From the NCBI GenBank assembly GCA_964016885.1, contig OZ024740.1, forward strand, positions 336,846,001 to 336,910,000: DNA of 64,000 nucleotides, read 5' to 3'. This stretch comes from Eledone cirrhosa. Lineage: Eukaryota. The notes below the pieces were generated by a model that was given only the letters and a program-made list of their open reading frames with translations, made no database searches and was not told the origin of the DNA. The translations under genes were made by a program, and so were the position numbers. Numbering within the stretch: the stretch's first letter is position 1; every line of letters begins with the position of its first letter. This document shows positions 7,004 through 64,000 of the stretch, one piece after another.

Positions 7004-7328
7004 TCATCATCATTTCATTTTATGTCCGCTTTTCCCTGCTTGCAAGGGTGGGATGGGAACTGATTCTGGCTTGATTTCTACAGCTGTATGCCCTTCCTCA
7101 TTTACAGTGAGTGCTGGGTGCTTTTTTGCTGTGGCACCTCCACGACCACTTTGCAGTGGAATGATAGGGACCCCAGTTCCTATCATCTCATTTCTACAGC
7201 TGAGTTAACTGGAGCAATGTGAAATAAAGTGTCTTGCTCAAGGAAACAACACATCACCCAGTCTGAGAATTGAACTCACAGCCTTTTGATTGCAAGGCCA
7301 ATGCTCTAACCACTAAGCCATGTGCCTC

Positions 7329-18002: not shown

Positions 18003-20344
18003 AATTAAATTAACATAATGTTTTGGTAAAATGAATGTGAGTTTCGTAGGCAGTTAGATGTGCAAAGATCCCTGTTTTATTTAAATGAGTGAGGGTTGTC
18101 AACAAGAAGGGCAATATACCATAGGATTCTACCTCAAAAGCTCTCATCCAACCTATGCAAGCATGAAAAAAATGGACAAACACACAGATTATATGTGCAT
18201 GTATATCATATATATTATTGTAATTGAGGTTGGTGCTATGAAGGGCATCCTGCAGTAGAAACCATGCAAAAATCAGTTCTGTATGTGCAAGACATGGTCA
18301 CCTGACTAAGCATTGCCCACAACAGGACAACCCGTCTAAGCCATGTTAGCGTGGAAAAATTGATGTAAAACGGTGATGATATTGATTATATATATATATA
18401 TATATGAACATGACCGCACGCGCACACACACACAGTGTGTGTGTGTATGAAGCTTTAAAATAGAATCTCATTTAATAATTAACTGTTACTAGTTAGTGAC
18501 TAATAAGTCACAAAGAAAACATATCAGTAATCACAATATATTTGCATATTTATCAATGAAACATTGGAGACAACTATTTATGACAATAGTAGAGGTTGAA
18601 GGCAGTGGATTAACAGAATTGTTAAAAGTATCAAACTAGATACTTTATACTATTTTTTCAACTCCTTGCATTCTCAGTTCAAATCTCACTGTGGTCAGTT
18701 GGCCAGTTTAAATCAACCATCTGGCCCTTGGGCGCCTTTAGCAGTGTCTACTCTGTGGCAAGGATTTGGGCCAGCTTTCTATTTGAGGATAACTTCCTCC
18801 TTCCTTCCTAACTTCCTAACTTCCTCCTCCTTTCCTTGGATTCCCTGAAGTAAGTCACTGGCATAGCCCTTCCTTCTCTGACTAAACAGTAAAACAAAAA
18901 ATAACCTGAAACCAACAAATCAGAAAATAGCGGCAAGTTCCTATTGACATATAAATGAAAATCATACAACTATGTGTATTAAATATGGATTTCATTAAAA
19001 CAGTTTAAGTGAAGACTAAATTTCTGAGGCTTAGAGATATAAACCATAAAAAAAGACAGTTTATCAAAGTCCTTAGGTAAAGCAGAAAGCTATCTAAACA
19101 AAGATCAGTTTAACTAGTTATTGTTGTTGTTGTTGTTGTTGTGTGCGCGTGCATGTGTGAGTGTTATCATTGAAGGTCAAGTGTGTAAGTCCTTCACATA
19201 GATTTGTTTAATGTCAAGAGAGTTTCAATTTATAGGACTAGAATAGATTGTAGTTCCTCATGATCAGCTGACTGTTCAAACATAAAATGAAAGAAAAAAA
19301 ATTCGATAAGCAAATGACAAATCTGTCATCATGTAGTACAAAGAAGAACAGTTTTTAGAGTGTGTTGTAAAATGTCTAGTGGTATGTCTAACACATTAAT
19401 AGACAGTAGAAAAGCAGGTAAAATAAAACTTTTAAAAAACTGTCAAAATCTATGTTGTAGTGCTGTAAGACTATATCTAATGTTTAGTCAAGAGAAAGGG
19501 CAGACTGATGAGGAAGAGGGGAAAAGATTCTCAAACTAGAAACCAGATTGGATGCTCGTAACAGTGAGGACTACACTAAAAGGCACCTAAGGGCCAGGTG
19601 GTGGTGTTAAACTGGGTGAGCCAAGGAGGTCCCAGCAGGATTTGAACATAGAATGCAAAAGAGACAGAAGAAATACTGCAAGACAGCCTATCTGATGCTC
19701 TAATGACTTTGCCAATCCACCACTATAGACTGGTAGTTTATTTATTGAGCCCGGTAGGTTGAAAGGCAAAGTTGACCTTGGCAGTCAACTAGGAGGTGGA
19801 ATAAATAACACAAGGCATTTCATTTAATGATCTAGCTCTTTTGTTAATTCAGTAAGATGTCTCTGTCTGAAACGTTTATCTTTACGTAGCCAACACATCA
19901 CAAGATTATCATGTCTATTGACTATTTGTGTGAATGTGTATTATATATATGTGTGTGTGTGTGTGTGTGTTAGTCCCGAGTTCAATCAGGGGTAACCCCA
20001 GTAAGTGAAGTACTCAATACATTAGTAGATTCCTGATGATTTCTTTCGATTGAAACAGTTCCAGTCTTGTACAAGCCATTTATATATATATCATCATCGT
20101 TTAACGTCTATCTTCCACGTTATATATATATATATACGATATTAACAAATGGAAACTATATTTATAAAACCATATTTATTTCATTATACATATTTCAAGG
20201 ACACCAATGTATAATGAAATAAATATGGTTTTATAAATATAGTTTCCATTTGTTAATATCGTATTTTTACTCCAATTATTTGTTGAGTGCTTTATATCAG
20301 TTATAAAAATATTTGCTTGTTGTATCCCAACAATTTAAATAGAA

Positions 20345-20414
<70 letters not shown>

Positions 20415-37057: not shown

Positions 37058-37745
37058 TGTGGACAGAAAAGACGCAATGTTTAGGCAAATTACAGAGGCA
37101 GTAAGCATAAAAGAATTAAAACCAAAATTAAATAGAAAATATGAGTGGAACAGCAACATCACAACTTACAATTAAGGACAAAATGAAAACACACACAGGA
37201 CAAAATGAAAACACACACACACATAGAACAAACAACTTACAATTAAGGACAAAATGAAAACACACACAGGACAAAATGAAAACACACACACACATAGAAC
37301 AAACAACCAACCAACAATAAATAAATAAATAAATAAATAAACAAATAGATAAATGAACACAAACACACACAGACACCCGGATGTGGCGCATGCGCAAACT
37401 GAGCACACAACACACACACAGAAACAAAATGGCGTAGGATAGAAGAAAGGAAAGGCACAGAAACAAAGAAAGGAATCCCCAGTCACTGAAGAGGTCACAG
37501 AGTGTGTGACGAAAGGACTATGACTATATATAAACAACTATCTGGTTGTGGAACCAACCAACCAACCAGAAATTTATAAGTTTGTGGATTTGTAAATTTA
37601 TAAATTTATAAATATATAATAAATTGAAGTGAAAGCAATTGGTGCGTGTGTTTCTTATTGGCAACATGACCCTCCCAAAGTATAACAATATCGGTTTCAA
37701 CACACGATTTCAGATAAAGAATCTTGCTAAACAAATTCAGAAACG
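37058..37745 (+). mobile_element. 3' fragment of another Penelope-like element (GIY-YIG C-terminus + pseudo-LTR)
   Basis: VDRKDAMFRQITEAVSIKELKPKLNRKYEW fits the EAxxIxxxxPxLN motif. It is followed by a 71-bp tandem duplication and a hammerhead. Confidence 0.7.
37481..37525 (+). ncRNA. Minimal type I hammerhead in a Penelope pseudo-LTR
   Basis: AGUCA-CUGAAGA-G-GUCACA gagug UGUGAC-GAAA-GGAC-UA-UGACU. Confidence 0.78.
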
Positions 37746-38799: not shown

Positions 38800-41700
38800 A
38801 CCTATTCTTCTCGCTAACAACTCAACACCACTCCCTCCCGCCCCCACGCACCACCATTATTATTACGTGGACCAATCATAAGCCAGAGGCCTATACTATC
38901 GCTTACCTGGTCGCCTTCGATATGTAGGATGGAAGGACTACGGAGTTCCGGAGAGTTGAAGAGAGAAAAATCTGGACGCTCAGCGACAATGCCAAAGATA
39001 AAGACAAACACACCTCGTGGACGAGAATGCGAGCATTCCTCTTTGTTTCGGCCGCGGGTGGCCAACATAACCCTATCTCCCCCCGCTCCCCACCGTTCCC
39101 ACCCTCCAAACGCAATCCAAAACTTCAGAGTTGGTACCTTGAATGTAGGCACCTTAAAGGGTCACTCTAACGAGGTTGTAGAAATGCTTGAACGTAAGGA
39201 GGTCGATGTTTGCTGTATTCAAGAGACCAGGTGGAGGGGTGGATCTGCTAGATTCATTGTGGGTAGAAAACGATGCTATAAGCTTTTCTGGGTGGGAAAT
39301 GACAATGGGCTGGGTGGAGTAGGAATCATGGTAGCAGAAAAGTGGGCAGATAAGATAATAGACGTAAATAGAGTGAACGACAGAATAATTAAAATAAGAC
39401 TTGTCCTCAATAGAACTACGGTGACAGTAATATCCGCGTACGCACCCCAATCCGGACTGCCCAGCACTATAAAAGACAGATTCTATGAGACACTGATGCT
39501 CACTACCTCCCAAATAACCGACAGTGACTATATAATTATTGCAGGCGACCTAAATGGTCACGTTGGACAACATTGTGACGGCTACGACGAAATCCATGGC
39601 GGCTATGGGTTTGGTACTAGAAATGAGGAAGGCTCCAGAATCCTGGAATTCTGTGACGCAAATAACCTAACTATCTGCAACACTAACTTCAAAAAACGAG
39701 ACAATCACTTGATCACCTACAGATCAGAGGAACATACCAGCCAGGTAGATTATATCCTTACCAGGAGACGTGACAGAGTGACTGTTGTAAACACTAAATC
39801 CCTCCCCCATGAAGAATGCACCTCCCAACATAGACTGATAATTAGTGACCTAATAGTCAGGACGAGACGTACTAGACAACAGAAGAGGACTATCCTCAGG
39901 AGAAAAATATGGAAGCTAAAGGACCCCACAGCCAAAAATAAATTTCAAAGCATATTACTTGATGCTTTCGACAGTAAGGAAGAGCATTTAGAGTCGGACA
40001 ATATAGAGGGACAGTGGGAATTTCTGAAAGCAAACCTACTGATGGCGACAGATGAAGTCTGTGGCTGGAGCAGGCCTGTTGGCAGGAGGAGAGTAACTTG
40101 GTGGTGGAACAGTAAGGTGGAGGAGTCAATCAAGGCCAAAAAGCAGGCTTGGAAAGTAGGGCGGGCTGGAGGAAGTAGAGAAGACTATCAAGTGGCCAAG
40201 AGGGAAGCTAGGGGACAAGTGTACTTCGCAAGAAGGGAAGCAGAGGAAAGAAAGTTCAAGCATGTTCTACAACGCGAGGACCAAAAACGTGAGGTGTTCA
40301 GGATTGCTAGGCAATGTGTCAAGGAAAACAGTGATATTGTCGGGGAGAAGTGTGTACTTAATGATGACGGCGTACTTGCCATCACCGACGCTGATAAGAA
40401 GGTAGCTTGGAAGTGTCAGTATGAAAGGCTACTAAATGAGGAGAATAAATGGGAGAAAGACAGTCTCCCCCACATCGACCCAATAGAGAGACCAGCAGTG
40501 TTAGTCGAGGGTAGTATAATAAGTAAGGCAATCAAAGATATGAAGACGGGTAAGGCGGCTGGGCCTTCGGAAATAGTTGCCGAGATGCTGAAGGCATCTG
40601 GTACGGTGGGACACACCATGGTCACCCGGATAGTCAACCAAGTCATACAGAATGGGGCTGTTCCGAAGGACTGGCGTAGCAGCATCATCGTTAACTGTTA
40701 TAAGGGTAAAGGAGATGCCCTAGATAGGAGTAACTATAGAGGCATTAAATTAATCGACCAGGTCATGAAGGTCACGGAAAAAGTAATAGCGCAACTAGTC
40801 AGAGAGCGAATTGATCTAGATGAAATGCAGTTCGGGTTTGTGTCAGGAAAAAGTACCACAGACGCTCTTTTCATTGTACGACAACTACAGGAGAAGTACC
40901 TAGCTAAAAGTAAACCCCTATACTTAGCTTTCGTCGACTTGGAGAAAGCCTTCGACAGAGTCCCCCGTTCCATTATCTGGTGGGCTCTTAGAAAACTAGG
41001 TGTTGATGAATGGCTTGTGAGAGCTATACAAGCCATGTATAAAGAAACAGTCAGCAAGGTTAGAATTAACAACGAATATAGTGAAGAGTTTAGTGTAAAA
41101 GTTGGTGTTCATCAGGGCTCTGTTCTTAGCCCCCTACTATTTATTATTGCCCTCCAGGCTATAACAGTGGAGTTCAAGACCGGCTGCCCATGGGAACTCC
41201 TATACGCAGATGATCTAACGCTCATAGCTGAAACAATGGCCGAGCTAGAGAAGAAATTCCAAACATGGAAGCACGGCCTAGAATCAAAAGGCCTTAAAAT
41301 TAACCTGGCTAAGACTAAAGTTCTAGTTTGTAAGAAAGAAAATAAGGCTGCGGTCCCCTCCGGGAAGTGGCCATGCTCAGAGTGTAGGAAAGGCGTAGGT
41401 AGAAACTCCATTTTGTGTCCCAAATGCAAAGTTTGGGTGCATAAAAGATGTAGTGGGATCACAGGTAAGCTAACTAAGAACATTGATTTTACATGTGGCC
41501 GGTGTTCTGGGGCAATAAGTAGCAGCAAGTGCCCACAAAATACTAGCTCTTTCAACTGCGCAGAGGGTTCTATAGAAATAGTGGACAGCTTCCGTTACCT
41601 GGGTGACAAAATCAGCAGTGGGGGAGGGTGCTCTGAAAGTACAGTAGCTAGAGTCAGAACTGGGTGGAAAAAGTTCAGAGAGCTCATACCACTATTAGCC

Positions 41701-42550
41701 GCTAAAGGGTTCTCCCTAAAAATGAAAGGCAGGTTGTACGATGCCTGCATACGAACAGCAATGTTGCATGGCAGTGAGACCTGGGCATTGTGTGCAGAGG
41801 ATATACGCAGACTAGAGAGAAACGAAGCTTGAATGCTCCGCTGGATGTGTAATAGTAATATACGTGAACGGCAAAGCATAAACGAACTAAGGAAAAAATT
41901 AGAAATAAGAGGGATCAGATGTTGTTTACTCGAGAGAAGGCTACGTTGGTATGGTCACGTGATGCGCATGAAGGACGATAGCTGTATAACAAAGTGCAGG
42001 GCAATAAAGATAGACGGTAGCCACGGAATAGGCAGACCCAGAAAAACCTGGGACGAGCTGATAAATTCCGACCTCACACACTTACACCTCACCAAGACAA
42101 TGTCACTGGACCGAGACCTTTGGCGGTACTCAGTAATAGAGAAGACCCGCCTTACCTAAATACAAAGTAAAACCTACTACAGTCAGTAGGCATCTCTAAC
42201 AAAATACACCCCCGTCCCACCACCCCCACCCCATCCACACCGCCCCTTTCAATGTAAAGTTATGTTGGTGCCACAACATCCAGGCCGAAACAAATGAGAT
42301 CGTGTAGGTGTCACGTCATAAAAACACACAGTTCACGCTGTAATGTGGCCGTGTAGGCAACACGGTAAAAACCTCCCAGTCCTACACTGTAAATGTGGTT
42401 GGTGTTAGGAAGGGCATCCAGCTGTAGAAAACCCGCCAGATAGTCCTATGCGAGCAAGATAACCACTCTTGCCTCAAGTGGGAAAACCCTCCGTCCAAAC
42501 CCATGCAAGCATGGAACACGGACGTTAAACGATGATGATGATGATGATGA
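38800..42550 (+). mobile_element. Near full-length RTE LINE (family A) with ~390-bp 3' UTR and (GAT)n tail; 5' boundary uncertain
   Basis: ORF above. 3' UTR is shared with copies at 14.3-15.3 kb and 50.1-50.8 kb. Confidence 0.9.
38929..42159 (+). pseudogene. RTE-clade LINE ORF (AP endonuclease + reverse transcriptase + PHD-type finger) with a single premature stop at 41830-41832
   Basis: APE motifs (TLNVGTL, IQETRW, GDLNGH, QVDYIL) and RT motifs (DLEKAFD, QGSVLSP, YADD). The frame continues past TGA, where sibling copies at ~14607 and ~50770 read TGC. Confidence 0.95.
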
Positions 42551-47687: not shown

Positions 47688-48057
47688 TATCTAAGGCGGG
47701 TAAAATTCCCGAGATCCATGGACGAGTTCTCTCCAGCGGTCTCTGTCCCTCATTATCGCTGCCATATCCTGCATCTCCAACAGACCAGTGTCTGTCCTTA
47801 GGGCATCAACATATGTTAACCTTGGTCTTCCTCTTCTAGTGTGTCCATGTAGGGGCTCCCAAAGGAGCACTGAGTGCAATGTCAACTCTGGATGTCGGTG
47901 AGCATGTCCAGCCAACCTCAGTCTCCTCTGTGTCACTTTTGAGCTGACTTTTGGGATGCCCCCATACAGTTCTGAGTTTTTCATCCTCAATGTATACTGA
48001 TTAATGTTCAGAGCCCTCCTCAGCATTCTCGTGTAGCACCCATCCACCATCTGAGTG

Positions 48058-48060
<3 letters not shown>
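47688..48060 (-). mobile_element. 3' fragment of an RTE/RTE-X-like LINE
   Basis: DGCYTRMLRRALNI...RRLRLAGHAHRH...[10 protein letters not shown]...DRDRWR. Partly duplicated at 49762-49953. Confidence 0.85.
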
Positions 48061-48137
<77 letters not shown>

Positions 48138-48311
48138 TAATTTAATATATCAACTAACATAAGCGCACAGATGCACGCCCATGCCAGCAAATACACAGGT
48201 TATGTCATAGTACCTAGGTGGTTCAATGCAGGAGAATGCAGAACAATAATATAAAGGACGTAAAATAAGAAAATATTTTTTTAAAAAAATTTAAAAAAAA
48301 TTTTTTTCCTT

Positions 48312-48421
48312 ACTTAAATTTTCACTCCAACTAATTAGTTTCTGCAATGGGATAAAGACAGTTACGTAATCCAACTGTCGAGAATTCATTGCGTCATCAG
48401 GAAGTCTATTCTCAGTTAAGT
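48312..48421 (-). ncRNA. Type I hammerhead ribozyme (inverted copy)
   Basis: Reverse complement of 49002-49111. Confidence 0.82.
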
Positions 48422-49001
48422 CTCCAGGCAATGCGCGGACACTGGCGGCTCATATAAAAATAATAATAATTCGGTAGATCGAACAGCTTGCGAGGACTGG
48501 ATTCTATGTACCGAAATTCTCACTGCTTCAAGTCAAATGGCCGATTCTAAAGAATCAATCACGTGACACAGAGGCTAGTTAGAAGGAATGGGATGGTAAG
48601 ATGACTGACGCCTACTAACACCCCAAAAAAAATTTTTTTTAGAAGTGGTTTTGACAAGTTTGCTCGACAAATCAGTGATTTGGAGATAAATATAGATAAT
48701 TTAATATATCAACTAACATAAGCGCACAGATGCACGCCCATGCCAGCAAATACACAGGTTATGTCATAGTACCTAGGTGGTTCAATGCAGGAGAATGCAG
48801 AACAATAATATAAAGGACGTAAAATAAGAAAATATTCCTTCTAACTAGCCTCTGTGTCACGTGATTGATTCTTTAGAATCGGCCATTTGACTTGAAGCAG
48901 TGAGAATTTCGGTACATAGAATCCAGTCCTCGCAAGCTGTTCGATCTACCGAATTATTATTATTTTTATATGAGCCGCCAGTGTCCGCGCATTGCCTGGA
49001 G

Positions 49002-49111
49002 ACTTAACTGAGAATAGACTTCCTGATGACGCAATGAATTCTCGACAGTTGGATTACGTAACTGTCTTTATCCCATTGCAGAAACTAATTAGTTGGAGTG
49101 AAAATTTAAGT
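49002..49111 (+). ncRNA. Type I hammerhead ribozyme (retrozyme unit), predicted cleavage after 49094
   Basis: Stem I ACUUC/GGAGU extended by ACUUAA/UUAAGU. CUGAUGA at 49023-29. Stem II GCAAUG/CAUUGC plus GACAGUU/AACUGUC. GAAA at 49081-84. Palindromic stem III ACUAAUUAGU. GUU triplet. Confidence 0.82.
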
Positions 49112-49560
49112 AAGGAAAAAAATTTTTTTTAAATTTTTTTAAAAAAATATTTTCTTATTTTACGTCCTTTATATTATTGTTCTGCATTCTCCTGCATTGA
49201 ACCACCTAGGTACTATGACATAACCTGTGTATTTGCTGGCATGGGCGTGCATCTGTGCGCTTATGTTAGTTGATATATTAAATTATCTATATTTATCTCC
49301 AAATCACTGATTTGTCGAGCAAACTTGTCAAAACCACTTCTAAAAAAAATTTTTTTTGGGGTGTTAGTAGGCGTCAGTCATCTTACCATCCCATTCCTTC
49401 TAACTAGCCTCTGTGTCACGTGATTGATTCTTTAGAATCGGCCATTTGACTTGAAGCAGTGAGAATTTCGGTACATAGAATCCAGTCCTCGCAAGCTGTT
49501 CGATCTACCGAATTATTATTATTTTTATATGAGCCGCCAGTGTCCGCGCATTGCCTGGAG

Positions 49561-49670
49561 ACTTAACTGAGAATAGACTTCCTGATGACGCAATGAATTC
49601 TCGACAGTTGGATTACGTAACTGTCTTTATCCCATTGCAGAAACTAATTAGTTGGAGTGAAAATTTAAGT
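49561..49670 (+). ncRNA. Type I hammerhead ribozyme (second tandem copy), predicted cleavage after 49653
   Basis: Identical by eye to 49002-49111. Confidence 0.82.
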
Positions 49671-49725
49671 AAGGAAAAAAATTTTTTTTAAATTTTTTTA
49701 AAAAAATATTTTCTTATTTTACGTC

Positions 49726-49763
<38 letters not shown>

Positions 49764-49950
49764 TGAGTGCAATGTCAACTCTGGATGTCGGTGAGCATGT
49801 CCAGCCAACCTCAGTCTCCTCTGTGTCACTTTTGAGCTGACTTTTGGGATGCCCCCATACAGTTCTGAGTTTTTCATCCTCAATGTATACTGATTAATGT
49901 TCAGAGCCCTCCTCAGCATTCTCGTGTAGCACCCATCCACCATCTGAGTG

Positions 49951-50074
<124 letters not shown>

Positions 50075-53620: not shown

Positions 53621-55807
53621 CATCATCATCATCATCATTTTACGTCCGCTTTTTCCTGCTTGCAAGGGTGGGATGGGTCTTATTCAGCACAGCATCTCTC
53701 CACTCGTCACGGTCCCTCGTCATCTCCACCGTGAGCTTCAATGATCTGAGGTCTGTTCTCACCACCTCCGCCCATGTTTTTCGTGGTCTACCTCTACCAC
53801 GTCTTCTTTCAACTGGCATTTCCTGGCACTTCTTCACCCATCGGTCATCCTCCATGCGCATCACATGTCCATACCACCTCAGTCTCCTCTCCCGTACACT
53901 ACATTCTATCCCTCTCAGACACAGTTTCTCTCTCAACACATTTATGCTGGGTCGTTCACGTACATTTACACTGCACATCCAACGGAGCATGCTTGCCTCA
54001 TTTCTCTCCAGCCGTCGCATATCCTCTGCGGTTGCTGCCCATGTCTCACTACCATGCAGCATCGCACTCCTCACACAGGCATCATACAACCGGCCTTTCG
54101 TACGCAGGGAGAAACCCTTCTTCGTCAACAGAAGAAGCAGCTCCCTAAACTTCTTCCAACCCGTCCTTATTCTAGATACTATGGCCTCGGAACACCCTCC
54201 TCCCATGCTAATCTGATCTCCTAAGTACCGGAAGCTATCCACCACTTCTATAGCGCCCTCTCGCATTTGAAAAATGTGTCTATCAGTGCGACTTCTACTG
54301 TCTAATTTCCCTGTACATCTACTGCATACATATTTCTCCCTACCTGTTAGTTTGCCTGCTATCTCGCTACATCTCTTGTGTACCCAGGACCTGCATTGTG
54401 TGCATTTTATAGAATTTATGCCAGTTCCTTTTCTGCATATCGAACATGGCCATTTCCCTGACGGAATCAGGGTTTTGTCCTCTTTTCTACTCATCAACAC
54501 TTTTGTCTTAGCTAGATTTACTCTCAGTCCTCTTGCTTCCAACTGCTGTTTCCATAGCCGGAATTTATTCTCTAGCTCCTCTACTGATTCTGCTATAAGA
54601 GCCAGATCGTCAGCATAGAGAAGTTCCCATGGACAGCCAGTCTTAAACTCCTCTATTATGGCTTGGAGGACTATAATGAACAAGAGCGGGCTGAGGACTG
54701 AACCCTGATGTACTCCTACTTGTATCTGGAATTCCTCACTAAACTCCATTCCTACCCTGACTTTACTGAGAGTACCTCTGCACAAATTTTGCACTGTCCT
54801 CACAAGCCATTCCTCAACACCTAGCTTCCTTAGAGACCACCAGATGACAGATCGGGGTACCCTATCAAAGGCCTTCTCTAGGTCAACAAAGGCTAAGTAT
54901 AGTGGCTTATTCTTCTCTAAGAACCTCTCTTGCATTTGTCTCACCAAGAAGAGGGCATCTGTTGTACTCTTCCCAGGCACTAAACCAAACTGCATCTCAT
55001 CTAGTTTGACCCTTTCTCTAATTAGTTGTGCTAAAATCCTTTCTGCCACTTTCATAACCTGATCTATCAGTTTTATACCCCTATAATTGCTCCTCTCCAA
55101 AGCATCCCCTTTACCTTTGTAGCAATTTATGAGAATACTGCTGCACCAGTCTTTGGGTATGACACCACCATATATAGCCTGATTGATGATGCGTGCAACC
55201 AGTTTAGTGCCTACGTCCCCTGATGCCTTCAGCATCTCAGCAACTATTCCCGATGGTCTGGCCGCCTTACCATTTTTCATTTCCCTAATCGCCTCTTGGA
55301 CCCTATATTCGTCAATCTCAATAGCTGGTCCCTCTGTCGGATCTACCAAGGGTAATTTCTCTCTCTCCCATTCGTTCTCCACATTCATCAGTCTCTCATA
55401 ATGACATTTCCAGGCCTCCTTTTTCTGGTCATTCGTGACACTAAGTACACCGGCATCATCCCGGACACATTTATCTCCAACAACATCCTGATTTGCATTG
55501 ACACACTGCCTTGCAATGTGGAACACCGCACGCCTCTGATCTTCCCGTCGCAGAACATTGGCAAACCTCCTACTCTCTGCCTCCCTGCGTGCTAAGTACA
55601 CCTGACGTCTAGCTTCTCTCTTAGTGGCTGTATATTCTTCCCTACTCCCACCCTTTTTCCAAGCCTTTCATGCTAGTCTTTTGTCTCTAATAGCCTTATC
55701 TACTGTGCTGTTCCACCACCAGGTCACTCTCTGTCTGGTTGGAGCTCTGCTCCAGCCACAGGTTTCATCAGTAGCCTGCAGCAAGTTGTCACGTAAGAAC
55801 TTCCAGT
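53621..55807 (-). mobile_element. 5'-truncated RTE LINE (family B), RT + PHD finger, ORF runs into the (GAT)n tail
   Basis: 653-aa ORF 53640-55601 with YADD. Clearly diverged from family A in sequence, with almost no 3' UTR. Confidence 0.95.
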
Positions 55808-55912
55808 TATATTGAAGGATTTGATAATATGTGCGAAGAAAAAGAAAATGTTAATATGTATTGAGAATAATGAGTTAGATGATAGGCAGAAAAGAATAAT
55901 GAATTGAGGATG

Positions 55913-55966
<54 letters not shown>

Positions 55967-56019
55967 ACATATATATATATATATACATACATATATATAC
56001 ATATATATATACATATATA

Positions 56020-57997
56020 ATATATAAGAACAAAAGATGGTTAAAGGAGTTCCATGTATTTTATTATGCGCATTTCAAAAACAAATATCATCATGCAATA
56101 ATATTTGTGTTTTCATCAGATAAAACAGGACATGATATGAAGGTTAAAAAACACTTGTGGATAGTTCAGTTTTAAATCAACATATGAGAAGTAGTTTTAG
56201 ATTGATGTGTGATATTGGGAAAAATATTTTATTTAGAGGGGGGGTGGTGAAAAAAAGGAGATGAGAGTGAAGGTGGAGAGGGAGGAGTATAGTGAGGAAG
56301 GATGAGATAGGAGGAGAGATGGGTGATAGAGAGAGAGAGATAGTTTTTATAACTGAGAAAGATATATTGTTTTGCTTAGAGAGGTTGAAAACCGTTGGAA
56401 GATAATGTATAAATTAAAAGAATTTGAAAATTAACGAAGAGAAAAATATGTGCGAAGAAAAAGGAGTTAATATGTATTGAGAATAATGAGTTAGATGATA
56501 GGGAGAAAAGAATAATGAATTGAGGATGAATATTCTAACGTCAAAAAAAATGTATATGTTTACGAAGGATTTTTACAAGGTGATATAGAGTAAGAATGTG
56601 TTGTATTATGTAATAATTGATTCTATGTTAGGCAAGAGTGAGAAAAGGTACAGATTAGGGGTTAGATATTAGAAGAGAAGAAAAGGAAGTGATAAATATG
56701 GGTGATGTAGAAAGAGTAAACAAGTATTATAGAATTTGAAAATTAACGAAGAGAAAAATAATGTAAAGTTAAGGTTTGTATATTGAAGGATTTGAGAAAA
56801 ATAATGTAAAGTTAAGGTTTGTATATTGAAGGATTTGATAATATGTGCGAAGAAAAAGAAAATGTTAATATGTATTGAGAATAATGAGTTAGATGATAGG
56901 GAGAAAAGAATAATGAATTGAGGATGAATAACCTAGCGTCAAAAAAAATGTATATGTTTACGAAGGATTTTTACAAGGTGATATAGAGTAAGAGTAATGA
57001 GTAAACAAGTATTATAGAATGTATAATAACCTTTGAAATAAGGTAGAAAGATGGGTATATTTTTAAAAGAAGTGTATATATATGTGCCTTTGAGAAAAAG
57101 ATTCTAAATTGATAAAGAATTGAATATTAGCTGTATACTTTGTGAAATGTTTTATGGAATTTATGCAAGCAGATAGAAAACAAGTCAGTGCGTCTATTTA
57201 TTATAGAATCTAGATTAGAGATAATGGTAAATTTTTCATTTAGACAGAGATTGCAGATTTTAGATAGAGAACTGTTCAAGTATGAAGACGCAGAAGAAAC
57301 CTTCTTCCAAAAGATGCTATATTTAATGTTTTTGTCTTTCAAGGACCATATGAGTTCTGAGAGAGCCGTGTTGGTTCTTTTAAGTTTGTATTTAAAAGAC
57401 GAATGATGGTTATAAAGATGAGCTTTAAAAGAGGTGGAAGTGGAGCCAAAATAGGTGAAGGAATTGGTGTCAGTTATAACTTTACATTCGTAAATTAAGT
57501 TTTTATCAAGACAATGGTTGTTGAGAGGACATTTATTTTTAATAGGGCAATTGCAATTGCAATTAGAGAGATTATTAATGAGTGACCTAGTGTTATCTAT
57601 AGAAGGAATTGGATTGGAGAAGTTGTTTGCGATAGGAATAATAGTTTCTTGATTTAGAATGGGATTATGAACATTTAGCGAAGTTGTGTTTGACGTTGTA
57701 TTTGGGGTTGTAGAAATTAGCCTAGGGTTTACGATGACGTCGGGAGTACTATTATTATGAAATTCAGTGTTGGAAGGAAGAGATTTAGTATTTAGTATTT
57801 TATTGTTGTGTTTAGAGATAATGTTGGAAATGTTGGAGGATGTAGAATAAGAAAATTTTATGGTGTTAAATATTTTACTATAGATATGTGAGGGAGGGAA
57901 GCATTTATTTAAGGCACTAAAGAATAATTTAGGAATATTGTTATTAATAGAGATGGAGAAAGGAGCATTATACCAGATTATATTTTTGTATCTAGGT
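56020..57997 (-). mobile_element. 5'-truncated Penelope-like element (RT thumb/linker + GIY-YIG endonuclease, repeat-rich 3' region with hammerhead)
   Basis: IIWYNAPFS...CNC..CPL..CL..NLIY...YFGST..FK...NH..SF...CNLCLNEK at 57127-57997. The N-terminal (YI)n part of the listed ORF is microsatellite. Confidence 0.88.
56059..56125 (-). ncRNA. Type I hammerhead in the Penelope 3' terminal region
   Basis: UUUUAU-CUGAUGA-[16-position stem II, 1 mismatch]-GAAA-UGCGCA-UA-AUAAAA. Palindromic stem III. Same strand as the GIY-YIG ORF. Confidence 0.85.
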
Positions 57998-58531
57998 ATA
58001 TATATACATATATATATATATACATATATATATATACATATATATATATACATATATATATATTCATATATATATATAGATATACATATATACATATATA
58101 TATATATATACATATACATATACATATATTTTTATTTTAATTATATCTCATAGAAAATAATCCAACTGGCTTTCCACGAAATACATATAGTTAGCACCCC
58201 AAACACTAAATTTGGATTATACTAACGTATATCCTAATGTTTGTTGAGTGAGACGGTTACCAGTCGGAGTTTAGCTTAAAGCTTTCTCTGTTATTGTATT
58301 AATTATATATATACATATATATATATACATATATATATATACATATATATATATACATATACATATATACATATACATACATATATATATATACATATAT
58401 ATATATATACATATATATATATACATATACATATATACATATACATATACATATATACATATACATATATATACATATATACATATATATATATATACCT
58501 ATATATATATATACATATATATATATAAAAA

Positions 58532-58611
<80 letters not shown>

Positions 58612-58633
58612 ATACATATACATATACATATAC

Positions 58634-58665
<32 letters not shown>

Positions 58666-58675
58666 ATACATATAC

Positions 58676-58744
<69 letters not shown>

Positions 58745-58855
58745 CATATATATATATACACCTATATATATATACATATATATATACATATAAATATACA
58801 TATACATACACATATATATATACATATACATACATATATATAAAGATATATATAC

Positions 58856-61048
58856 ATCATCATCATCATCATCATCATCATTTTACGTCCGCTTTTCCCT
58901 GCTTGCAAGGGTGGGACGGGTCTTATTCAGCACAGCATCTCTCCACTCGTCACGGTCCCTCGTCATCTCCACCGTGAGCTTCAATGATCTGAGGTCTGTT
59001 CTCACCACCTCCGCCCATGTTTTTCGTGGTCTACCTCTACCACGTCTTCCTTCAACTGGCATTTCCTGGCACTTCTTCACCCATCGGTCATCCTCCATGC
59101 GCATCACATGTCCATACCACCTCAGTCTCCTCTCCCGTACACTACATTCTATCCCTCTCAGACAGTTTCTCTCTCAACACATTTATGCTGGGTCGTTCAC
59201 GCACATTTACACTGCACATCCAACGGAGCATGCTTGCCTCATTTCTCTCCAGCCGTCGCATATCCTCTGCGGTTGCTGCCCATGTCTCACTACCATGCAG
59301 CATCGCACTCCTCACACAGGCATCATACAACCGGCCTTTCGTACGCAGGGAGAAACCCTTCTTCGTCAACAGAAGAAGCAGCTCCCTAAACTTCTTCCAA
59401 CCCGTCCTTATTCTAGATACTATGGCCTCGGAACACCCTCCTCCCATGCTAATCTGATCTCCTAAGTACCGGAAGCTATCCACCACTTCTATAGCGCCCT
59501 CTCGCATTTGAAAAATGTGTCTATCAGTGCGACTTCTACTGTCTAATTTCCCTGTACATCTACTGCATACATATTTCTCCCTACCTGTTAGTTTGCCTGC
59601 TATCTCGCTACATCTCTTGTGTACCCAGGACCTGCATTGTGTGCATTTTATAGAATTTATGCCAGTTCCTTTTCTGCATATCGAACATGGCCATTTCCCT
59701 GACGGAATCAGGGTTTTGTCCTCTTTTCTACTCATCAACACTTTTGTCTTAGCTAGATTTACTCTCAGTCCTCTTGCTTCCAACTGCTGTTTCCATAGCC
59801 GGAATTTATTCTCTAGCTCCTCTACTGATTCTGCTATAAGAGCCAGATCGTCAGCATAGAGAAGTTCCCATGGACAGCCAGTCTTAAACTCCTCTATTAT
59901 GGCTTGGAGGACTATAATGAACAAGAGCGGGCTGAGGACTGAACCCTGATGTACTCCTACTTGTATCTGGAATTCCTCACTAAACTCCATTCCTACCCTG
60001 ACTTTACTGAGAGTACCTCTGCACAAATTTTGCACTGTCCTCACAAGCCATTCCTCAACACCTAGCTTCCTTAGAGACCACCAGATGACAGATCGGGGTA
60101 CCCTATCAAAGGCCTTCTCTAGGTCAACAAAGGCTAAGTATAGTGGCTTATTCTTCTCTAAGAACCTCTCTTGCATTTGTCTCACCAAGAAGAGGGCATC
60201 TGTTGTACTCTTCCCAGGCACTAAACCAAACTGCATCTCATCTAGTTTGACCCTTTCTCTAATTAGTTGTGCTAAAATCCTTTCTGCCACTTTCATAACC
60301 TGATCTATCAGTTTTATACCCCTATAATTGCTCCTCTCCAAAGCATCCCCTTTACCTTTGTAGCAATTTATGAGAATACTGCTGCACCAGTCTTTGGGTA
60401 TGACACCACCATATATAGCCTGATTGATGATGCGTGCAACCAGTTTAGTGCCTACGTCCCCTGATGCCTTCAGCATCTCAGCAACTATTCCCGATGGTCC
60501 GGCCGCCTTACCATTTTTCATTTCCCTAATCGCCTCTTGGACCCTATATTCGTCAATCTCAATAGCTGGTCCCTCTGTCGGATCTACCAAGGGTAATTTC
60601 TCTCTCTCCCATTCGTTCTCCACATTCATCAGTCTCTCATAATGACATTTCCAGGCCTCCTTTTTCTGGTCATTCGTGACACTAAGTACACCGGCATCAT
60701 CCCGGACACATTTATCTCCAACAACATCCTGATTTGCATTGACACACTGCCTTGCAATGTGGAACACCGCACGCCTCTGATCTTCCCGTCGCAGAACATT
60801 GGCAAACCTCCTACTCTCTGCCTCCCTGCGTGCTAAGTACACCTGACGTCTAGCTTCTCTCTTAGTGGCTGTATATTCTTCCCTACTCCCACCCTTTTTC
60901 CAAGCCTTTCATGCTAGTCTTTTGTCTCTAATAGCCTTATCTACTGTGCTGTTCCACCACCAGGTCACTCTCTGTCTGGTTGGAGCTCTGCTCCAGCCAC
61001 AGGTTTCATCAGTAGCCTGCAGCAAGTTGTCACGTAAGAACTTCCAGT
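58856..61048 (-). mobile_element. Second copy of the truncated RTE family B with a 2-bp deletion frameshift near 59160
   Basis: Same truncation point and near identity to 53621-55807. Confidence 0.95.
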
Positions 61049-61153
61049 TATATTGAAGGATTTGATAATATGTGCGAAGAAAAAGAAAATGTTAATATGT
61101 ATTGAGAATAATGAGTTAGATGATAGGCAGAAAAGAATAATGAATTGAGGATG

Positions 61154-61203
<50 letters not shown>

Positions 61204-61256
61204 ACATATATATATATATATACATACATATATATACATATATATATACATATATA

Positions 61257-63234
61257 ATATATAAGAACAAAAGATGGTTAAAGGAGTTCCATGTATTTTA
61301 TTATGCGCATTTCAAAAACAAATATCATCATGCAATAATATTTGTGTTTTCATCAGATAAAACAGGACATGATATGAAGGTTAAAAAACACTTGTGGATA
61401 GTTCAGTTTTAAATCAACATATGAGAAGTAGTTTTAGATTGATGTGTGATATTGGGAAAAATATTTTATTTAGAGGGGGGGGGGTGAAAAAAAGGAGATG
61501 AGAGTGAAGGTGGAGAGGGAGGAGTATAGTGAGGAAGGATGAGATAGGAGGAGAGATGGGTGATAGAGAGAGAGAGATAGTTTTTATAACTGAGAAAGAT
61601 ATATTGTTTTGCTTAGAGAGGTTGAAAACCGTTGGAAGATAATGTATAAATTAAAAGAATTTGAAAATTAACGATGAGAAAAATATGTGCGAAGAAAAAG
61701 GAGTTAATATGTATTGAGAATAATGAGTTAGATGATAGGGAGAAAAGAATAATGAATTGAGGATGAATATTCTAACGTCAAAAAAAATGTATATGTTTAC
61801 GAAGGATTTTTACAAGGTGATATAGAGTAAGAATGTGTTGTATTATGTAATAATTGATTCTATGTTAGGCAAGAGTGAGAAAAGGTACAGATTAGGGGTT
61901 AGATATTAGAAGAGAAGAAAAGGAAGTGATAAATATGGGTGATGTAGAAAGAGTAAACAAGTATTATAGAATTTGAAAATTAACGAAGAGAAAAATAATG
62001 TAAAGTTAAGGTTTGTATATTGAAGGATTTGAGAAAAATAATGTAAAGTTAAGGTTTGTATATTGAAGGATTTGATAATATGTGCGAAGAAAAAGAAAAT
62101 GTTAATATGTATTGAGAATAATGAGTTAGATGATAGGGAGAAAAGAATAATGAATTGAGGATGAATAACCTAGCGTCAAAAAAAATGTATATGTTTACGA
62201 AGGATTTTTACAAGGTGATATAGAGTAAGAGTAATGAGTAAACAAGTATTATAGAATGTATAATAACCTTTGAAATAAGGTAGAAAGATGGGTATATTTT
62301 TAAAAGAAGTGTATATATATGTGCCTTTGAGAAAAAGATTCTAAATTGATAAAGAATTGAATATTAGCTGTATACTTTGTGAAATGTTTTATGGAATTTA
62401 TGCAAGCAGATAGAAAACAAGTCAGTGCGTCTATTTATTATAGAATCTAGATTAGAGATAATGGTAAATTTTTCATTTAGACAGAGATTGCAGATTTTAG
62501 ATAGAGAACTGTTCAAGTATGAAGACGCAGAAGAAACCTTCTTCCAAAAGATGCTATATTTAATGTTTTTGTCTTTCAAGGACCATATGAGTTCTGAGAG
62601 AGCCGTGTTGGTTCTTTTAAGTTTGTATTTAAAAGACGAATGATGGTTATAAAGATGAGCTTTAAAAGAGGTGGAAGTGGAGCCAAAATAGGTGAAGGAA
62701 TTGGTGTCAGTTATAACTTTACATTCGTAAATTAAGTTTTTATCAAGACAATGGTTGTTGAGAGGACATTTATTTTTAATAGGGCAATTGCAATTGCAAT
62801 TAGAGAGATTATTAATGAGTGACCTAGTGTTATCTATAGAAGGAATTGGATTGGAGAAGTTGTTTGCGATAGGAATAATAGTTTCTTGATTTAGAATGGG
62901 ATTATGAACATTTAGCGAAGTTGTGTTTGACGTTGTATTTGGGGTTGTAGAAATTAGCCTAGGGTTTACGATGACGTCGGGAGTACTATTATTATGAAAT
63001 TCAGTGTTGGAAGGAAGAGATTTAGTATTTAGTATTTTATTGTTGTGTTTAGAGATAATGTTGGAAATGTTGGAGGATGTAGAATAAGAAAATTTTATGG
63101 TGTTAAATATTTTACTATAGATATGTGAGGGAGGGAAGCATTTATTTAAGGCACTAAAGAATAATTTAGGAATATTGTTATTAATAGAGATGGAGAAAGG
63201 AGCATTATACCAGATTATATTTTTGTATCTAGGT
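61257..63234 (-). mobile_element. Duplicate Penelope-like element
   Basis: The protein at 62364-63234 is identical to the first copy. Confidence 0.88.
61296..61362 (-). ncRNA. Type I hammerhead in the duplicated Penelope copy
   Basis: Copy of 56059-56125 at offset 5237. Confidence 0.85.
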
Positions 63235-63762
63235 ATATATATACATATATATATATATACATATATATATATACATATATATATATACATATATATATAT
63301 TCATATATATATATAGATATACATATATACATATATATATATATATACATATACATATACATATATTTTTATTTTAATTATATCTCATAGAAAATAATCC
63401 AACTGGCTTTCCACGAAATACATATAGTTAGCACCCCAAACACTAAATTTGGATTATACTAACGTATATCCTAATGTTTGTTGAGTGAGACGGTTACCAG
63501 TCGGAGTTTAGCTTAAAGCTTTCTCTGTTATTGTATTAATTATATATATACATATATATATATACATATATATATATACATATATATATATACATATACA
63601 TATATACATATACATACATATATATATATACATATATATATATATACATATATATATATACATATACATATATACATATACATATATACATATACATATA
63701 TATACATATATACATATATATATATATACCTATATATATATATACATATATATATATAAAAA

Positions 63763-63844
<82 letters not shown>

Positions 63845-63866
63845 ATACATATACATATACATATAC

Positions 63867-63898
<32 letters not shown>

Positions 63899-63908
63899 AT
63901 ACATATAC

Positions 63909-63975
<67 letters not shown>

Positions 63976-64000
63976 CACCTATATATATATACATATATAT

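Follow-up and report, generated by a model that had tools for sequence, protein, structure and literature searches.

Metazoan non-LTR retrozymes are non-coding tandem repeats of low G+C that carry one type I hammerhead ribozyme per unit, run to thousands of copies and share their genomes with Penelope-like elements (PLEs). The retrozymes of coral, mussel and axolotl yield circles of ~170-400 nt (Cervera and de la Pena 2020, PMC7229834). Family consensus sequences range from 51 to 972 bp, with a mean of 650 in ray-finned fish, and one of nine Xenopus dimers cleaved in vitro (Li, Clavereau and Pollet 2026, 10.64898/2026.07.22.740005). The sampling laid out in the available text of that study takes in no mollusc. 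The published link between retrozymes and PLEs consists of co-occurrence and of similarity to the terminal repeats of PLEs, the pLTRs (PMC7229834; Li 2026). PLEs themselves leave an unusual scar, in which the tail often stands at one end only and is accompanied by an inverted 5' copy (Craig 2021, PMC8557442). A purified PLE cuts and extends both strands and starts at two internal sites (Frangieh 2024, PMC11167929).

The element we describe lies in a 64,000-nt stretch of Eledone cirrhosa DNA, which we call the window. Judged by its letters, it is a real and recently active non-LTR retrozyme family: tandem, multi-copy and with a predicted type I hammerhead. As such it adds a family to a known class, and what is of value is the anatomy of its insertions. 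For the specialist, the interest lies in a strict rule for the two ends (one is always start site A, the other start site B), a motif held in common with the Hydra-clade PLEs of the same genome, and microsatellite tails that appear to depend on the template. Ends of this kind, inverted arms and a shared start-site motif form an insertion signature that has no counterpart in the available text of the retrozyme papers. Our literature search found no account of cephalopod hammerheads or retrozymes, although supplements might list such a family; the main text of a 2026 paper on Octopus vulgaris repeats (PMC13282606) contains the words hammerhead, ribozyme and retrozyme zero times.

The insertion is 1,607 nt long, and its target was a (TC)n(TA)n tract adjoining a fragment of an RTE-like LINE. 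It is made of two outward-pointing arms of one 559-nt unit, minus then plus, which overlap by 3 nt at 48834-48836 (Table 1). The initial annotation had seen here a simple tandem of a non-coding 559-bp unit with complete type I hammerheads, and much of that stands. The period is exact, 48834-49174 being 100% identical to 49393-49733 over 341 nt, and 559 alone rises above background among periods 540 to 579 (403 of 600 matches, vs 140-191 for the others). We found no coding potential in the unit, where no stop-free frame, on whichever strand, is longer than 52 aa. Core and stems of the two plus-strand hammerheads can be read from the sequence, with predicted cuts after 49094 and 49653. Tandem repetition is right for the plus arm and its 1.61 units, but not as a simple tandem throughout, as 48127-48836 runs the other way and holds a third hammerhead that had been missed. 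The 559-nt monomer has a G+C content of 36% and a predicted fold that beats 100 of 100 shuffles (z -3.74).

Table 1. Features of the retrozyme insertion and its flanks (positions in the window)
Feature	Position	Strand	Remarks
Plus arm	48834..49733	+	1.61 units; outer (3') end = start site A
Inverted arm	48127..48836	-	1.27 units; outer end = start site B, last unambiguous base 48136
Predicted 559-nt monomer	49095..49653	+	between two predicted cleavage sites
Hammerhead 1, type I	49018..49099	+	palindromic stem III; additional C follows A9, additional A precedes G12; predicted cut after 49094
Hammerhead 2, type I	49577..49658	+	predicted cut after 49653; 559 nt beyond hammerhead 1
Hammerhead 3, type I	48324..48405	-	inverted arm; predicted cut between 48329 and 48328
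Start site A, internal copy	49170..49174	+	TATAT, unit positions 76-80; terminal copy 49729-49733
Hairpin with 2-nt 3' bulge	49179..49202	+	directly 3' of site A
Long covarying hairpin	49225..49278 (bounds approximate)	+	directly 5' of site B
Start site B, internal copy	49287..49292	+	CTATAT, unit positions 193-198
CTCCAA...TGTYGAG motif	49297..49319	+	directly 3' of site B; could form weak bulged hairpin
(TA)17	49729..49762		at A end
Left copy of 271-nt direct duplication	47869..48139	+	RTE-like LINE fragment, then (TC)22 + (TA)n = target tract
Right copy of 271-nt duplication	49762..50032	+	99.6% identical to left copy

The first hammerhead serves to show the design. Stem I pairs ACUUC (49018-22) with GGAGU (49095-99). 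The core runs from CUGAUGA (49023-29) through an extra C (49030) to an extra A (49080) and GAAA (from 49081), and between the two extra bases stem II joins GCAAUG (49031-36) to CAUUGC (49074-79), lengthened by a distal stem. Stem III is the palindrome ACUAAUUAGU, with GUU and the predicted cut after 49094. All told, the core is CUGANGA + GAAA + UH, stems I-III follow the type I order, and two extra unpaired bases flank stem II. The annotation had called this ribozyme atypical, which is only partly right. An extra nucleotide between A9 and G10.1, a G10.1-C11.1 pair, a palindromic loop 3 and an expected activity as dimers are shared with the minimal hammerheads of PLEs, of which the first and third are known traits; the long two-part stem II (~49 nt) and the conserved extra A before G12 do not appear in the available text on them (PMC4209133). 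Folded back on itself as a hairpin, the palindrome of stem III is unstable (+1.5 kcal/mol); as a duplex it is stable (-10.8), in keeping with activity as a dimer.

The Rfam hammerhead models, scanned as the annotation had proposed, do not match the unit, either at the gathering score or at E<=10, so the ribozyme call depends on motif and covariation. Stem II, at 49 nt, probably exceeds what the models hold, which would explain the missing match. (At the gathering score Rfam finds only a tRNA-like SINE match in the window; the tRNA-like match at 7259-7322 is probably a SINE head.) Folded alone, the hammerhead stretch does no better than shuffles (z -0.83). Covariation was read from an alignment of 26 hammerheads out of 46 distinct sequences, taken from the genomic subfamilies, and it is in stem II that it appears between subfamilies. 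Among the 26, pair 10.2 takes the forms AU, UA, CG and GC, while UA and GC are both found at pair 10.5. Double changes are found in two of six pairs, 98.5% of cells are paired, and the 23 cells with double changes are a number reached by 0 of 500 shuffles, a count that is not a probability because the aligned hammerheads are related. The invariance of the core is circular, since the sequences were chosen by it; stem III and the single tested pair of stem I, being invariant, are uninformative. One could still hold that the family is satellite DNA, spread by recombination at the DNA level and carrying a decayed hammerhead-like motif, and point to the missing Rfam match and to the higher-order repeats in some long arms. 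The covariation of stem II speaks against this, as do dispersal over many chromosomes, two fixed 3' ends with variable 5' ends and the pairing of A with B, and we find the idea scarcely credible.

The family is large. An 18-base motif from the 3' part of the ribozyme has 12,847 exact copies genome-wide (control 0), which bears out the multi-copy non-LTR retrozyme that had been proposed. In the element's own genome (3.0 Gb) there are 502 candidate places; the 40 that were scored gave 262 matches, in arrays across many chromosomes, and full-length copies are 96-100% identical among the matches listed (best 40 of 502 places). An old subfamily has a unit of 533-540 nt, 81% identical to the young unit, and 3,558 candidate places. 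A further one, at 71-76% identity and with 1,771 candidate places, is known from coordinates and one locus only. A fourth has a unit of 521-532 nt and 1,574 exact motif matches, vs 1 in the control. Coding PLEs reside in the same genome, with copies that hold open frames of 740-820 aa. At 559 nt the unit is longer than the experimental circles of ~170-400 nt (PMC7229834), yet within the published 51-972 bp (Li 2026), and the claim that it is unusually long has to be given up.

Viroid-like, the annotation's other label, does not carry beyond the general kind, as the minus strand of the unit has no hammerhead core. A viroid-like RNA with additional RNA-to-RNA replication, a possibility raised for mussel retrozymes (PMC7229834), would go well with a hairpin-rich monomer. 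But besides the missing minus-strand core the predicted fold is branched, not rod-like, and retrotransposition accounts for all the features seen, so that we set very little store by this reading. The contig sets are of no help on expression. Set X1 has 1,185 contigs whose summed depth is very high, as it should be for a genomic repeat, and X4-X6 have a depth of ~3; contigs carry a 559-nt back-joint that a circle or a tandem could equally produce, and they therefore count neither for nor against expression.

A more searching question, raised at the outset, is whether the unit is merely a pLTR, left at each locus when 5' truncation removed the ORF of a coding PLE. Its layout (hammerhead, ~50-75 nt, site A, ~90-120 nt, site B) mirrors the pLTRs of the Hydra PLEs of this genome, and retrozymes are derived from pLTRs according to Li 2026 (10.64898/2026.07.22.740005). 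Descent of the unit from a pLTR is likely. Loss by truncation is very improbable, for the arrays, of up to 15 units, are self-closing with no ORF between, and an RT + GIY-YIG ORF continuing from the unit is found in 0 of 40 young insertions. These two findings largely refute the unit as a pLTR only; it now spreads without an ORF. Two of the outcomes that the annotation had named as grounds for refutation, missing stem covariation and a unit that is just the end of a coding element, have in this way been looked for, and neither was found.

The 40 young loci, the window and 39 others, are the best-scoring ones, a choice biased toward young, long arrays. They sit in (TA)n microsatellites; 31 are two-armed and nine one-armed. 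All 31 two-armed insertions have A as the outer end on one side and B on the other, and none has A + A or B + B. Were the ends chosen independently, the P for this would be ~1e-9. The same two ends recur in older subfamilies, with a few irregular loci (L079, L096 and L173 are examples), and the visible ends of 24 old-subfamily insertions and 25 fourth-subfamily loci almost all enter simple repeats. Such ends, with inverted arms, match the one-ended tail and the two internal start sites of PLEs, and the Penelope-like mobilisation that the initial annotation gave for the class gains support from them. The likeness to endonuclease-bearing PLEs extends to AT-rich or (TA)n targets and to priming on both strands; unlike those elements, the retrozyme lacks an ORF, its arms are multimeric and its start-site repeats are apparently extended (PMC8557442, PMC11167929). 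Its tail is ~117 nt, against 30-40 in PLEs (PMC8557442). For Poseidon of Anolis, no difference in start site between the strands was seen in vitro (Frangieh 2024, PMC11167929), whereas the retrozyme always pairs A with B.

We looked for target-site duplication as a general feature and rejected it: a duplication abutting both ends occurs only at the window, one of the 40 loci. There the 271-nt duplication could be either a long target-site duplication or a separate duplication linked to (TA)n. Short target-site duplications would be masked in (TA)n. Locus L035 sits within a duplication of ~4 kb, inside which a Hydra PLE has a one-armed array (L035:3249-6130) inserted in its (TA)n tail; here the tail of one element acts as target for the next.

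The arms span 0.2-15 units. They are longer than one unit in 58 of 71 cases, and both arms are so in 18 of the 31 two-armed insertions, in which the inner junctions are all distinct (31/31), with 0-15 nt of overlap in 25 and gaps in six. Where a variant is present in at least two units of one arm and covered by the other, the two arms share it, in 12 of 12 loci; the shared variants include one private to L059 and one that alternates unit by unit (L048). Variants limited to a single unit are absent from the other arm. Both arms, then, had one template sequence, though that it was one molecule is not provable.

What kind of molecule might it have been? One answer is a long, uncut read-through transcript of an array, inserted by a PLE, with the hammerhead kept for some other or occasional role and circles no part of the route. 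In vitro, the anole PLE uses mainly uncut RNA as its template (PMC11167929), eight of nine Xenopus dimers stayed uncleaved (10.64898/2026.07.22.740005), and both arms share mixed unit types in L040 and L048. The predicted circle also disfavours the active hammerhead fold, which costs 2.5 kcal/mol relative to the local minimum and 5.9 relative to that of the circle. Against this, none of the 31 two-armed insertions repeats an inner junction, the 5' ends of the arms come without carried-over upstream flank, and fixed variants extend through whole arrays. L048 alternates two unit types, as a dimer circle would. We judge read-through unlikely, and release of monomers that become circles, as in other members of the class, a reasonably good bet. 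Inside the arms of L048, L059, L062 and L040 the unit variants form higher-order patterns, of period 2 in L048 and ~3 in L059, that either multimeric templates or later duplication could have made. The recurring unit patterns of the longest arms come perhaps from later tandem duplication.

The ends show a second pattern. Site B of the 538-nt (old) subfamily reads TTCTCTATAT, with TCTCT, and 16 of 18 of its B ends run on into (TC)n of at least three units: 5-34 TC units, then (TA)n. Young B ends, TATCTATAT, have (TC)n in 0 of 35 cases and fourth-subfamily B ends in 0 of 8, which makes 16/18 in the subfamily with TCTCT vs 0/43 in those without. The internal copies of site B, with the same seed, are expanded in 0 of 43 (overlapping loci may double-count copies). 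It is fairly likely, we think, that the reverse transcriptase re-copies the dinucleotide at its start site, a telomerase-like stutter. Telomerase repeat addition and LINE 3' template slippage both involve the repeated copying of a short template stretch where reverse transcription starts. The slippage envisaged for the retrozyme would differ in lying at an internal site and in giving dinucleotide tracts. Our search of the literature for start-site stutter in PLEs found none.

The alternative is that reverse transcription did not make the tails, and that they were already in the target or arose later by slippage of DNA polymerase beside long (TA)n. The tracts of the old subfamily grew from seeds of 2-3 units to 5-34 units in copies that are mostly 94-98% identical, and runs of that length at such identity exceed ordinary slippage. 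A pre-existing tract that was split or duplicated should have left (GA)n on the opposite flank, and complementary (GA)n was found at 0 of 17 A-end flanks within 150 nt. That (TC)n follows the template letters by subfamily, and that the 43 internal copies with the same seed remain unexpanded, count further against this account. In its favour, (TA)n is a known preferred target of PLEs (PMC8557442), (TC)n(TA)n tracts are common in the loci examined, and two of 18 old B ends lack (TC)n. The window contributes less than it might. Neither the left duplicate nor a paralogous copy of the LINE (L189, the one informative paralog in our search for empty sites) has the (TA)17 of the A end at the corresponding position, but long duplications beside (TA)n elsewhere, at L035 and at window 53800-64000, make the case of 49729-49762 a weak one. 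On the whole we consider an origin of the tails outside reverse transcription somewhat unlikely.

Some tails are stranger. In L150 and L039 the tail holds a longer unit several times over (in L150 an 18-mer, roughly sevenfold), which hints that longer stretches may be copied repeatedly. At L084, of the old subfamily, one and the same flank sequence, inverted, follows both ends, as would be seen had copies of a single DNA end primed the two arms.

Who, then, is the partner? Across four coding PLE families, represented by 82 loci from among tens of thousands of PLE-like places, we found no extended homology to the unit, and the assignment therefore depends on a short motif. All four retrozyme subfamilies have, 3' of site B, the 13-base split motif CTCCAA...TGTYGAG. 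A coding Hydra-clade PLE family (L130) has CTCCAA...TGTTGAG after both of its start sites. In 987 kb searched, CTCCAA-N-TGTYGAG has 437 matches, 414 at site B of retrozymes and 23 at Hydra-PLE start sites, and its reversed control 0; the motif was noticed post hoc, and those 987 kb are enriched for the retrozyme and Hydra-PLE families. The motif can fold as a hairpin with a 2-nt 3' bulge, a weak one (-0.2 kcal/mol in the young family) that is absent from the consensus fold. A bulged hairpin of the same shape and other letters is found at site A of the retrozyme and in the L195 family, and the L150 family has a hairpin with a 1-nt bulge after site A. On the A side of the retrozyme, seven of eight pairs are kept in 12 of 12 aligned units and the remaining pair in 11 of 12, with no compensatory changes.

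Three of the four coding PLE families are Hydra-like (L130-149, L150-169 and L195-206), with open frames of 740-820 aa in two of them. By motifs alone, the L134 protein belongs there: its RWK-like, DKT, CxCX5C linker, CxxC and CxH motifs and the lack of CCHH are those published for the Hydra clade (Craig 2021, PMC8557442). The terminal repeats of these PLEs share the order of the unit (hammerhead, site A, then site B), along with the palindromic stem III, a stem II flanked by single extra bases, two TA-tailed ends and the bulged hairpin. They differ from the unit in that the elements encode proteins of 740-820 aa, in start sites only ~63-90 nt apart and in having no extended similarity to it. 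Such resemblances make a Hydra-clade PLE the probable mobilising partner. The L195-L206 family, a very young Hydra-like PLE (96-100% aa identity over 150 matches, open frames to ~820 aa), is a candidate active mobiliser. L205, of this family, has complex reiterated repeats as its tail.

The fourth family (L100-129) is Neptune-like, young, with a 784-aa open frame in many copies, a terminal repeat of ~1 kb and two TA-tailed ends 41 nt apart. We noticed no hammerhead in it. Of its two-arm loci, nine show both ends, and all nine obey the A + B rule. Despite this it is the less likely partner, since it has neither similarity to the unit nor the start-site motif.

Putting this together, we propose that a non-autonomous non-LTR retrozyme is, very probably, copied into (TA)n by a coding PLE that provides RT and GIY-YIG nuclease and that most likely belongs to the Hydra clade. 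Tandem arrays would be transcribed, and their hammerheads, probably as dimers through the palindromic stem III, would release 559-nt monomers that become circles. The PLE protein would cut both strands at a (TA)n tract. One 3' end would prime at site A and the other at site B, ~117 nt further 3'; the pattern of ends is as described above, and the enzyme is our supposition. The bulged hairpin directly 3' of each site may position the enzyme, and re-copying of the start-site dinucleotide would give the (TA)n or (TC)n(TA)n tails. Both copies pass the ribozyme junction, extend for 0.2-15 units and meet head to head, at random positions and with scant overlap, if any, as the structures of the insertions have it. 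We can be bolder, if only tentatively and with more doubt than conviction, and imagine the Hydra-clade enzyme as an asymmetric pair that grips one circle at its two bulged hairpins, primes from both (TA)n ends, stutters and rolls round the circle.

Why should this matter? The enzyme that moves animal retrozymes has so far been argued from co-occurrence and repeat similarity, and here the insertion scars point to PLE machinery, probably of the Hydra clade, with candidate partner proteins still open-framed in the same genome. The 31 of 31 A + B insertions with their shared variants place tight limits on models of how PLEs come to be inserted inverted and with one tail. If the stutter is real, it makes PLE reverse transcriptases akin to telomerase in function and not in descent alone, and provides a source for compound microsatellites. 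Were the fuller picture of the paired enzyme true, retrozymes and PLEs would themselves make the microsatellites, (TA)n and (TC)n(TA)n, into which they later insert, feeding the microsatellite richness of the genome. As a non-coding RNA of 559 nt that comes in four natural subfamily variants, the unit is also a small, ready substrate for questions of mobiliser, insertion and stutter.

The window holds other repeats. A tiny two-armed insertion of the terminal repeat of the L130 Hydra PLE lies at 20122-20410 between (TA)n tracts, with A and B ends. At 53800-64000 there is a tandem duplication of ~5.24 kb (99-100% identity), either real or an assembly artefact, that holds a young Hydra-like PLE fragment with its nuclease end at 57133-57534 (minus) and a hammerhead at 56119 (minus). 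Short hammerhead-like cores at 37486, 3327 and 20033 belong to other repeats, and the one at 37486 recurs in several loci. The reverse transcriptase region of an RTE-like LINE, interrupted by a stop, occupies 40000-42550, and at 891-2222 there is a minisatellite with 49 copies of 27 nt.
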